Source of the DNA: Nanobdellota archaeon
GTDB lineage: Archaea > Nanobdellota > Nanobdellia > Woesearchaeales > JAGWAF01
DNA: 64,000 nt
Direction: 5' to 3'
Assembly (NCBI GenBank): GCA_038046365.1
Contig: JBBSWF010000136.1
Span: 3,681-67,680 of the forward strand
Position 1 is the first letter of the stretch. Each line of letters begins with the position of its first letter. Positions 19,861 to 22,044 of the stretch are shown here, piece after piece. A program made the translations under genes and the position numbers. Below the pieces are notes generated by a model, which was given only the letters and a program-made list of their open reading frames with translations, was not told where the DNA came from and searched no databases.

Positions 19861-20952
19861 TCACCTAATTATTTCTATGCCGAGTTCCTCGGTCAGCTCA
19901 CGCGAGACCTTGTCGTTGAAGGTAGCCTTCTCGTAGCGCTCGGAGCGAGAACCTGATGAATTCTTGCCCACGACCCACGGCGAGTGGATGCCTGTAACGA
20001 TTGTCATCACGGTGATCTTGCCCTTCATGCTCTCGTCCACGCGGGCTCCCCAGATGACATTGGCGTTCTCGTCAAGCTCCTCTGTGACTAATTCTCCCAC
20101 GCGGTTGATCTCCTCAAGAGTCATGTCAGGACCGCCGCTTATGTGAAGCAGCGCGCCTGTCGCGCCCTCATAGTCGATGTCCAAGAGAGGGTTCTTCAAG
20201 GCGCCCTTGCAGGCCTCCTCGATGCGGTTGTTGGTGTCAGACGCTCCAACGCCAATGACCGCGACGCCGCCATTCTTCATGATGGCCTTGACATCAGCAA
20301 AATCTAGGTTGACCAATGAAGGCAGAGCGATCGTCTCTACGATACCCTTGATCATGGTGGCGACGAGCTCGTTAGCGACCGCGAAAGCCTGCTGGATAGG
20401 CAAGTTGCCGGCGATCTGGACAAGGCGGTTGTTGTCAATGACAACAACAGTGTCAGCGACCTCGCGCATCTGCTGGAGACCGTACTCAGCTTTGTCCACT
20501 CTTGCACGCTCGATGCGAAATGGCATAGTGACGGCGCCAATGACAATGGCGCCAGTGTCATGCGCCACCTGTGCTATGACTGGAGCAGAACCTGTTCCTG
20601 TACCTCCACCCATACCTGCACATACGAAAACCATGTCTGAACCCTTGAGGCAGGACTTGATCTCGGTCATGGATTCCTGGGCTGCCTCGGCTCCCTTCTC
20701 TGGAAAGCCGCCGCATCCTAGACCTCTTGTCAAGTCGCGCCCGATCAAGAACTTCTTGTCAGCGCTAGAGATCTTGAGGTGCTGCTGGTCAGTGTTGCAC
20801 GCAAGAATCTCGGCGCCCTTGATCCCCTTATTATATAGCCAAGTCACCATGTTGTTACCTGCGCCACCTGCGCCGATAACCTTGATGTTCGCCTGGCCTA
20901 CTTCTATCCCTTCAAACGCGCCTTTCTGTGAAGGCATTTCTATGTAATCCAT
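19861..20952 (-). CDS. ftsZ: Cell division GTPase FtsZ
   Basis: 363 aa, with GAGGAGNNMV and the tubulin signature GMGGGTGTGSAPV. Confidence 0.95.
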   Translation of the reverse strand: MDYIEMPSQKGAFEGIEVGQANIKVIGAGGAGNNMVTWLYNKGIKGAEILACNTDQQHLKISSADKKFLIGRDLTRGLGCGGFPEKGAEAAQESMTEIKSCLKGSDMVFVCAGMGGGTGTGSAPVIAQVAHDTGAIVIGAVTMPFRIERARVDKAEYGLQQMREVADTVVVIDNNRLVQIAGNLPIQQAFAVANELVATMIKGIVETIALPSLVNLDFADVKAIMKNGGVAVIGVGASDTNNRIEEACKGALKNPLLDIDYEGATGALLHISGGPDMTLEEINRVGELVTEELDENANVIWGARVDESMKGKITVMTIVTGIHSPWVVGKNSSGSRSERYEKATFNDKVSRELTEELGIEIIR

Positions 20953-21083
20953 GTCTATCCCCCCTTGTGTTTGTTTTTGGTCTTTGGCCTTTTGTGAAGA
21001 GCAGAACTATACGTTCCACTACCACAATCTTTATATCATAGCATATGCTATGGATTACTCAGAACGTCGTTGTGTGACTTCGA

Positions 21084-21185
21084 CCTCACGCCAATGAGGC
21101 CTGAACGATCCCAACACCGGACGCCAATCCGGGAAATGAATGATTACCACCAACATTCAATTGCGAGTTTACGCCAATAAACTCG
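21084..21185. other. Three stem-loops with different stems and the identical hexaloop CGCCAA
   Basis: CCTCA-CGCCAA-TGAGG (21084-21099), CCGGA-CGCCAA-TCCGG (21117-21132) and CGAGTTTA-CGCCAA-TAAACTCG (21164-21185). Confidence 0.5.
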
Positions 21186-21411
21186 TTCTTTTCTAGTTTT
21201 CCTGAAAATCCTACTATTTAAGCTTTTAAAGAATCGGAAATATATATTGGAGTGGTGGGATTGAGATTTGTCGACGAGAAAATAATTGTTTCATGAATGA
21301 TTAATGTAAAGATAGGACTGTTATTGGGATTTATGGGGGAGAATGGGACTGAAAGACGCCAAAAATATTCAACCAATCCTAGACACTTCCGACACGGAAT
21401 CTCCATGGGAC

Positions 21412-22044
21412 TCACTGCAGCTTCTTCGCGAGCTTCTCGACAAATTCCTTGCCCTTGCTCATAGCTTGCTCGACGTAGACGGAGTAGTGACCGAGCACCC
21501 AGTCCATATCCACCGTTCGTCTACCATATCTGCCAAAGAAGGTGAGGATCTCGATGTTGTAGCGCGGCGGCGGCGGGACTTTCTCATCAGCAAGACCGAT
21601 CGGAATGACCGAGTGAGGGGCTGCGGTGTCAGGAAGGGCACAGATCCTGCTTATCATGCCCTCGTCGAAAGCGCTGACCCAGCAAGAGGACAAGCCCTGC
21701 GCCTGGGCTGCGAGAATTATGTTCATGGTCGTGGCGGCGGTGTTCTGGATAGAGTAAACCTTCTCGCCCCTAGCCCCATAGAACTGAGCGCACTTGTCGA
21801 TTTCCGCAACGATGACTATTATGACTGGAGCTTTGGCGATCCAGAACTGCTGAAAGCAGGCATCGGCGATCTCCTTTCTTTGAGATTCTTCTGTGATGAT
21901 TATGAATTTCCAGGCCTGGAGGTTGCCTGCACTCGGAGCCGCGCGTCCTGCTTCGAGGATCGGGCCCAGCTTCTGCATGGGGATTGGTATATCCGCAAAC
22001 TTGCGGATGCTTCGCCGCGTCAAAATGGCCTCCATTACATCCAT
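21412..22044 (-). CDS. Nitroreductase-family protein (210 aa)
   Basis: The ATG at 22044 gives MDVMEAILTRRSIRKF... followed by AAPSAGNLQAWKFI, typical nitroreductase motifs. This is the only credible part of the 587-aa track ORF 21412..23175. Confidence 0.8.
   Translation of the reverse strand: MDVMEAILTRRSIRKFADIPIPMQKLGPILEAGRAAPSAGNLQAWKFIIITEESQRKEIADACFQQFWIAKAPVIIVIVAEIDKCAQFYGARGEKVYSIQNTAATTMNIILAAQAQGLSSCWVSAFDEGMISRICALPDTAAPHSVIPIGLADEKVPPPPRYNIEILTFFGRYGRRTVDMDWVLGHYSVYVEQAMSKGKEFVEKLAKKLQ

Follow-up and report, generated by a model that had tools for sequence, protein, structure and literature searches.

The DNA analyzed here (referred to below as the window) is a 64,000-nt stretch from the genome of a DPANN archaeon (Nanobdellota, order Woesearchaeales). 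Within it, an ftsZ gene and a nitroreductase-family gene, both encoded on the minus strand, are separated by a gap of 459 nt, which contains an array of three short hairpins and several putative transcription signals. The features of this region, in the order of their coordinates, are as follows.

19861–20952, minus strand: ftsZ, with its ATG at 20952; this is the paralogue that carries the array in every genome examined
20959–20964, minus strand: Shine-Dalgarno sequence GGGGGG of ftsZ (relatives keep GGGGG(G)AT before the ATG)
21022–21037, plus strand: BRE-like element and TATA box (CCACAATC TTTATATC; TATA box at 21030–21037), the predicted promoter of a plus-strand RNA
21037–21052: perfect 16-bp palindrome CATAGCATATGCTATG, abutting the TATA box at 21030–21037 and preceding the predicted plus-strand start
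21058–21064, plus strand: CTCAGAA (consensus CTTAGAA), with the predicted start of the plus-strand RNA at ~21061
21082–21101: hairpin 1, the nearest to ftsZ (core 5-bp stem at 21084–21099), (GA)CCTCA-CGCCAA-TGAGG(CC) on the plus strand
21117–21132: hairpin 2, CCGGA-CGCCAA-TCCGG
21164–21185: hairpin 3, CGAGTTTA-CGCCAA-TAAACTCG on the plus strand, on which a simple scan finds it terminator-like
21186–21201, plus strand: T-rich tract TTCTTTTCTAGTTTTC directly after hairpin 3, terminator-like by the same kind of scan and the predicted 3′ end of the plus-strand RNA
21215–21230, minus strand: promoter P1, consisting of BRE-like TTTAAAAG and TATA box CTTAAATA (21215–21222), with a predicted start at ~21191, just before hairpin 3
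21412–22020, minus strand: nitroreductase-family gene, with its 3′ end at 21412

The hairpins are located 132–233 nt upstream of the ftsZ ATG, and also upstream of the TATA box at 21030–21037. They share the hexaloop CGCCAA and differ in their stems, as described in the initial annotation, and this arrangement is very unlikely to be due to chance: when the 459-nt gap was shuffled 5000 times with dinucleotides preserved, not even two loop-sharing hairpins (defined as a stem of at least 5 bp with a 6-nt loop) were ever obtained. Extension of hairpin 1 to 21082–21101 requires that one A·C / G·U position be allowed; on the minus strand this hairpin reads GGCCUCA-UUGGCG-UGAGGUC. The A-T pair noted earlier as closing each stem next to the loop is indeed present in all three window hairpins, but it is peculiar to the window genome, the commonest closing pair in relatives being U-A on the ftsZ strand (113 of 224).

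Screening of the 2.02-Mb assembly of the window genome (G000) revealed 1568 copies of CGCCAA/TTGGCG on both strands. Seven of them are enclosed by a stem of at least 4 bp, and three of these seven are the array hairpins. The array is the sole loop-sharing hairpin cluster of this genome, and one array is found per genome. Together with the shuffle test, the single cluster in 2.02 Mb indicates that the element is neither a dispersed repeat nor a product of chance. No tRNA was found near the array. Two more clusters of three TTGGCG within ~130 nt (C53:5606–5714 and C166:18761–18894, both plus strand) have no hairpin stems and are probably coding repeats. Isolated intergenic hairpins with a CGCCAA loop occur at C105:18967 and C150:5750 (stems of 6 and 4 bp, respectively), with no covering ORF and no Rfam match. 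As partners of the array, the other genomic CGCCAA-loop hairpins (C105, C119, C150 and C166) were rejected: two are in coding sequence and two are intergenic without an Rfam hit.

A DNA similarity search with the gap gave no match in 40 relatives, as the sequence outside the loops has diverged too far. In the ten other genomes of the family, the FtsZ orthologue was located first and its upstream region was then read. Wherever the contig of a family genome includes the ftsZ upstream region, three to four hairpins are present at the same place. Their stems bear no relation to those of the window, and on the ftsZ strand their loop reads TTGGCG (CGCCAA on the complementary strand). Hairpin 3 of the window is orthologous to the best-conserved hairpin of the relatives, GAGTTTT-TTGGCG-AAAACTC (ftsZ strand). 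The close ftsZ paralogue of the same genomes is without such hairpins.

The distribution of the array in a wider set of genomes was examined with the strict pattern TTGGCG-N13–43-TTGGCG-N15–45-TTGGCG, for which all prevalence figures are lower bounds; it matched 90 of 301 sampled Woesearchaeales genomes (82 of 217 genera), compared to ~15 genomes for a reversed-pattern control. In 58 of the 59 Woesearchaeales arrays compared, the best FtsZ match follows on the same strand at a distance of 150–260 nt; the remaining array is followed by only 220 nt of contig. Among 62 genomes sampled from other orders of the class, five contain an array, each directly upstream of ftsZ and on the same strand; over the arrays of the order and these five, the distance to ftsZ is about 100–340 nt. 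For 72 Woesearchaeales FtsZ loci, 400 nt or more of upstream sequence was available; 48 of them contain TTGGCG twice or more, and in 44 of the 72 one NTGGNN hexamer occurs at least three times, versus 0 of 80 stretches of ftsZ coding sequence. The number of loops per array, determined for 84 non-redundant arrays, is 2 (11 arrays), 3 (40), 4 (26), 5 (5) or 6 (2). The module is tied to one ftsZ paralogue throughout Woesearchaeales, and it occurs in other Nanoarchaeia too.

The nitroreductase gene is the only frequent and conserved neighbour of the array other than ftsZ, and the order nitroreductase – hairpin array – ftsZ recurs across several families (L003, L004, L006, L008, L041, L042, L051, L059 and others). 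Some genomes have another upstream gene, and there the array stays with ftsZ (the upstream gene is a DNA ligase in L005 and a different gene in L012). A zinc-ribbon ORF of 34–36 aa with two CxxC motifs is located between the nitroreductase gene and the array at L003 1034–1144 (G003) and L004 ~3060–2960 on the minus strand (G010). Its window counterpart (21218–21415, minus strand) has one CxxC only and looks degenerate. This small ORF was rejected as a partner protein of the array, being present in only 1 of 58 regions scanned, that of a close relative.

For the analysis of covariation, 150 loop windows were drawn at random from the arrays, with no selection for stems, and aligned on the loop. 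Over the eight flanking positions, standard pairs were found in 70.6% of cells, compared to 41.7% when the 3′ letters were shuffled (0 of 500 shuffles reached the observed value); with the partner slid by 1–3 columns, pairing was 36–48%. The covariation score of the same windows was 0.672, against a comparison value of 0.202, and A-U, U-A, G-C and C-G pairs were all present at every pair position. A census of hairpins with at least 6 Watson-Crick pairs and any loop of 3–9 nt, carried out on 103 ftsZ upstream regions, gave 398 hairpins, 86 of which have exactly TTGGCG as the loop, while any other loop occurs at most 4 times. TTGGCG is enclosed by a four-pair stem in 57% of cases in arrays, versus a background of 0.4% in the window genome. 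The covariation, the loop census and the background rate together indicate that a folded single strand is under selection and that recognition is through the loop. The earlier proposal of selection on a structure presenting a fixed loop is strongly supported: relatives retain the loop and exchange the stems by compensatory changes, and in orthologous ftsZ upstream regions the stems covary while the loop is kept as UUGGCG (ftsZ strand) or CGCCAA (plus strand).

Some lineages without TTGGCG carry hairpins at the same place, all of them with another loop. The loops of these lineages, read on the ftsZ strand, are as follows.

UUGGCA, four times: L152
GUGGCA / UUGGCA, in all hairpins of one genus: G005
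(C/U)UGGACA: L092, L102 and L104
UGGGCA: L119
UUGGAA(G): L123
UGGUUAG: L154
UUGGCU, with weak stems: L090 and L091

Within an array the loops change in concert, and UGG, which reads CCA on the opposite strand, is the only part of the ftsZ-strand loop common to all variants. A similar concerted pattern could also arise if hairpins were gained and lost by duplication, at the cost of an added assumption.

Inspection of the sequences flanking the array revealed two canonical BRE/TATA promoters that face each other and have the same build (BRE-like RAAAT(R) followed by TTTAWATA). Among the 84 arrays, the TATA box of P1 matches TTTAWATA in the ftsZ orientation exactly in 74% and with no more than one mismatch in 96% (exact in the reverse orientation, 19%); it is preceded by the consensus CAGAAAT(R), and the predicted start lies just before the first hairpin. 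The second TATA box, at 21030–21037 in the window, had initially been assigned to ftsZ. In the direction away from ftsZ, however, it matches the archaeal consensus better (exact in 29% of the 84 arrays and with no more than one mismatch in 81%) than in the direction of ftsZ (2% and 50%, respectively); a proximal ftsZ promoter may nonetheless be present downstream of the array. In the plus-strand orientation the second TATA box has the upstream consensus CCAAAAT(R). Its spacing to CTTAGAA is a constant 26–28 nt in the 84 arrays (from the TTCT start to the TATA start); the A of AGAA is thus ~24 nt downstream of the TATA box. A distance of ~24 nt corresponds to the usual geometry of archaeal start sites.

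The tract that follows the array in the plus direction consists of 49% T, and a run of at least four T is found after the array in this direction in 76% of the 84 arrays, versus 30% in the other direction. The predicted plus-strand RNA of the window, ~130–140 nt long, would extend from ~21061 to ~21195 and would be almost perfectly complementary to the initial 130 nt of the transcript predicted on the minus strand. Runs of at least five T are present inside 58 of the 84 arrays on the ftsZ strand, where they could stop the leader transcript. The 16-bp palindrome resembles an operator, through which a dimeric regulator would act on the shared control region. Relatives have instead an ACTAN...NTAGT inverted repeat bracketing the second TATA box. 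An RNA stem enclosing this TATA box was considered for the repeat and rejected, as ACTAN...NTAGT keeps its sequence and RNAalifold gave no consensus structure; the conserved sequence is instead consistent with an operator. A short hairpin, TGCAAA-N6-TTTGCA, recurs between the second TATA box and the ftsZ ATG (G090, L085, L097 and L111).

The strand that folds was assessed from the interruptions of the helices and from predicted folding. In helices interrupted between at least three Watson-Crick pairs on both sides, 14 A·C and 1 G·U interruptions were counted on the ftsZ strand; with two flanking pairs the counts were 23 A·C and 9 G·U. Since A·C on the ftsZ strand corresponds to a G·U wobble in the plus-strand RNA, this bias leans to the plus-strand RNA. 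Minimum-energy folds of whole arrays retained 140 of 153 well-formed hairpins for the plus-strand RNA and 120 of 153 for the ftsZ-strand RNA. The energies of single hairpins were mixed, with the ftsZ-proximal hairpin favoring the plus strand and the middle hairpins favoring the ftsZ strand, and a shuffled-arm control showed that their strand signal is partly compositional. In the window itself, the minimum-energy fold of the minus strand retains all three hairpins and that of the plus strand only hairpin 3. Judged from these sequence patterns, the plus-strand RNA is probably real and under structural selection. A transcript of the ftsZ strand is predicted from its own promoter, and we do not decide for one strand alone. 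An independent small RNA, one of the options raised at the outset, is plausible in view of the promoter, the T-rich tract, the wobble pairs and the folds; it would, however, be encoded on the plus strand, opposite to the flanking genes, which is not the strand that had been favored.

Comparison of the element with Rfam 15 gave no hit at the gathering score, and at E ≤ 10 only two chance-level hits were obtained in the window; twenty orthologous regions gave nothing at E ≤ 0.1. The earlier statement that no RNA family can be assigned is thus upheld for the window and for these twenty regions. A literature search found no paper describing the element. It is very probable that the array represents an undescribed, conserved and structured regulatory RNA linked to ftsZ, which makes it a strong candidate for a new RNA family; its probable role is that of an RNA switch dedicated to cell division.

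As to its mode of action, we tentatively favor an overlapping pair of sense RNA and countertranscript that would set ftsZ output through loop-loop kissing. P1 (21215–21230, minus strand) would transcribe the array toward ftsZ, possibly as the 5′ part of a ~240-nt leader, and the promoter at 21022–21037 (plus strand) would produce a countertranscript of ~130–140 nt, from ~21061 to the T-rich tract at 21186–21201. Two RNAs with mirror-image hairpins have complementary loops, and the loops of the sense RNA and the countertranscript would kiss at several sites, joining both RNAs quickly. Rapid multi-site kissing would be favored by UUGG, which is a YUNR U-turn motif, and by the strong pairing nucleus GGCG/CGCC. 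If the sense transcript is the ftsZ leader, the pairing would control the synthesis, stability or translation of the ftsZ message; a helper factor that binds the loops may act in addition. An antisense promoter convergent with that of the target, and a terminator at the end of the antisense RNA, are predicted at the array from conserved consensus promoters and a conserved T-rich tract. The promoters, the RNA ends, the strand and the read-through into ftsZ are predictions based on consensus sequences.

Any cis-antisense pair is complementary, irrespective of its sequence, so the identical loops within an array and their concerted switches between lineages are not explained by antisense pairing alone and point to a shared partner acting in trans. 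The array may accordingly be a binding platform for a loop-specific factor (a protein or an RNA), either as a sponge-type small RNA that titrates it or as an ftsZ leader through which it controls translation or decay; this we regard as possible, if somewhat doubtful. A factor with drifting specificity would give concerted loop changes in which UGG/CCA alone is constant, and this reading also suits the copy number of 2 to 6 and the arrays of L090 and L091, in which the stems decay while the repeated motif persists. Yet no candidate was found: CsrA (PF02599) is absent from the window genome and from 40 relatives (controls were positive), no neighbour gene besides the nitroreductase is conserved, and the zinc-ribbon ORF is limited to one family. 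Moreover, the two facing promoters are given no role, and with one array per genome such a factor would serve a single RNA. A loop-binding factor co-evolving with the loops is in our view nearly as likely as the sense/antisense pair, and the two do not exclude each other. The protein-binding array controlling ftsZ that had been suggested initially is hence possible at the RNA level, but unlikely as a DNA site, given the compensatory stem changes and the A·C/G·U asymmetry. Indeed, for an element acting as DNA (as cruciforms or as a series of transcription-factor sites within the control region of ftsZ), the promoter context, the adjoining operator-like palindromes and the fixed position relative to the TATA box can be cited. 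The conserved core, however, is non-palindromic, the flanks are palindromic yet unconstrained in sequence, compensatory changes of this kind are typical of a single strand that folds on itself and not of a duplex site, and an asymmetry between A·C and G·U interruptions is meaningless for duplex DNA, all of which renders this explanation improbable.

The sole constant of the loop variants also allows reading or mimicry of the tRNA CCA end. In this case the array would act on the ftsZ strand only, as a leader for sensing the free 3′ ends of tRNAs, with the loop UGG pairing with CCA and the next base with the discriminator, so that division would be coupled to the state of translation. UGG is the only loop part kept in all lineage variants, a strong ftsZ-strand promoter lies just before the array, and tRNA-Ser, tRNA-Arg and tRNA-Asn of the genome have C72-G73 and would after maturation end in CGCCA, the complement of UGGCG. 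On the other hand, there is no specifier, no stem-I-like part, no terminator/antiterminator alternative and no T-box hit in Rfam, the loop variants would imply different discriminators in different lineages, and the wobble and folding tests lean to the other strand. We consider such a leader very unlikely, and equally so the broader proposal that the array reads or mimics the free CCA end and thereby links FtsZ synthesis to tRNA charging. Still less can be said for hairpins that belong to the 3′ UTR of the nitroreductase gene or serve as its terminators, or that derive from chance or a repeat, the probability of which we regard as negligible. The nitroreductase gene is a frequent upstream neighbour, and its 3′ UTR had been among the options initially listed, but a canonical promoter lies between its stop codon and the array, and the array persists beside other upstream genes (the DNA ligase of L005, and L012). 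No T-run follows the hairpins on that strand, the terminator-like pattern being confined to hairpin 3 on the plus strand, and chance or a repeat conflicts with the single cluster in the genome and the shuffle test. On comparative sequence data, we reject a duplex-DNA site, the nitroreductase 3′ UTR, a repeat element and chance alike.

The favored sense/antisense pair has its closest counterpart in plasmid replication control. According to the title of Asano et al. (1998, J Biol Chem 273:11826; as cited in PMC10724649, PMC3753616, PMC9977716 and PMC4374534), a 5′-UUGGCG-3′ loop motif of the antisense Inc RNA binds its target in the IncIα plasmid ColIb-P9, and plasmid countertranscript recognition, as summarised in PMC10724649, begins by loop-loop kissing. 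In the Inc RNA, as far as the motif is known from that title, the hexamer UUGGCG is placed in a loop facing CGCCAA, as in the array. In the IncIα/IncB/IncK (Inc RNA, RNAI) and IncFII (CopA/CopT) systems, the promoter of a short antisense RNA lies within the leader DNA of the gene under control, an arrangement that the array would resemble in the proposed reading. The differences are also clear: (i) the plasmid systems are bacterial, whereas the array is archaeal and chromosomal; (ii) plasmid countertranscripts have one main stem-loop, whereas the array has 2–6 hairpins; (iii) UUGGCG is on the antisense RNA in the plasmids and on the strand of the controlled gene in the array; and (iv) the plasmid RNAs target a rep gene that has both a leader peptide and a pseudoknot, and neither was found at the array. 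A leader peptide with Trp (UGG) codons was rejected because the loop spacing shows no frame preference (modulo 3 counts of 73, 49 and 77). A ColIb-P9-style pseudoknot partner near the ftsZ ribosome-binding site was likewise rejected, since the window has GCCAA 30 nt before the Shine-Dalgarno sequence and relatives are without it. As there is no homology to the plasmid systems beyond the hexamer, the likeness is convergent and functional and does not denote family membership.

Other known RNAs resemble the array in its repeated architecture. CsrB/CsrC and RsmX/Y/Z have many hairpins with unrelated stems, one short loop motif and a copy number that varies between lineages, as in the array. CsrB and RsmZ titrate CsrA. 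The loop bound by CsrA is A(N)GGA, whereas that of the array is UUGGCG/CGCCAA, with GGA only in rare lineage variants, and the Csr RNAs are tied to no one neighbouring gene, whereas the array is bound to ftsZ. The iron-responsive elements (IREs) of the transferrin-receptor mRNA, which bind IRP, also combine several hairpins in one untranslated region with a fixed hexaloop and free stems. The IRE, however, is eukaryotic, has the loop CAGUGN with a C bulge and is read by one known protein, whereas no binding protein was found for the array. In T-box leaders, a UGGN bulge pairs with the tRNA NCCA end, and the array likewise has an invariant UGG followed by a variable base. The T-box has a specifier, a stem I and a terminator switch, which the array lacks in the alignment; the motif of the array is repeated in hairpin loops, and the element gives no Rfam hit.

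To our knowledge, very little has been described on the control of FtsZ levels in archaea, and nothing for the DPANN archaea, which cannot yet be grown alone. The element described here is conserved across an order of more than 130 families and reaches other orders, always with the same ftsZ paralogue. This conservation, the fixed ftsZ paralogue and the simple, mutable anatomy of the array provide a concrete and testable handle on division control. If the array acts through the sense/antisense pair, archaea and enterobacterial plasmids have independently reached the same UUGGCG/CGCCAA kissing hexamer. If it acts through a trans factor, there exists an undiscovered loop-specific RNA-binding regulator, which the loop variants of the lineages would allow to be found by co-variation. 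If it reads tRNA ends, ultra-small archaea tie FtsZ synthesis to the charging state of tRNA, by a T-box-like logic built from repeated hairpin loops instead of a T-box; we know of no such logic in archaea.

The ftsZ genes themselves gave two further observations. In six-frame matches, two array-linked ftsZ genes (G057:C11:11492–12418 and G331:C9:85956–86990) contain one in-frame TAA each, which could be an assembly error, a pseudogene or recoding. The leader of the array-less ftsZ paralogue contains a different, long and G+C-rich hairpin at L013 2730–2610 on the minus strand (the G005 paralogue; GGTTGGGC...GCCCAACC), and a G+C-rich hairpin of the type GGAGACCC...GGGTCTCC is present in the leader of the array-less paralogue at L011 2650–2590, also on the minus strand.
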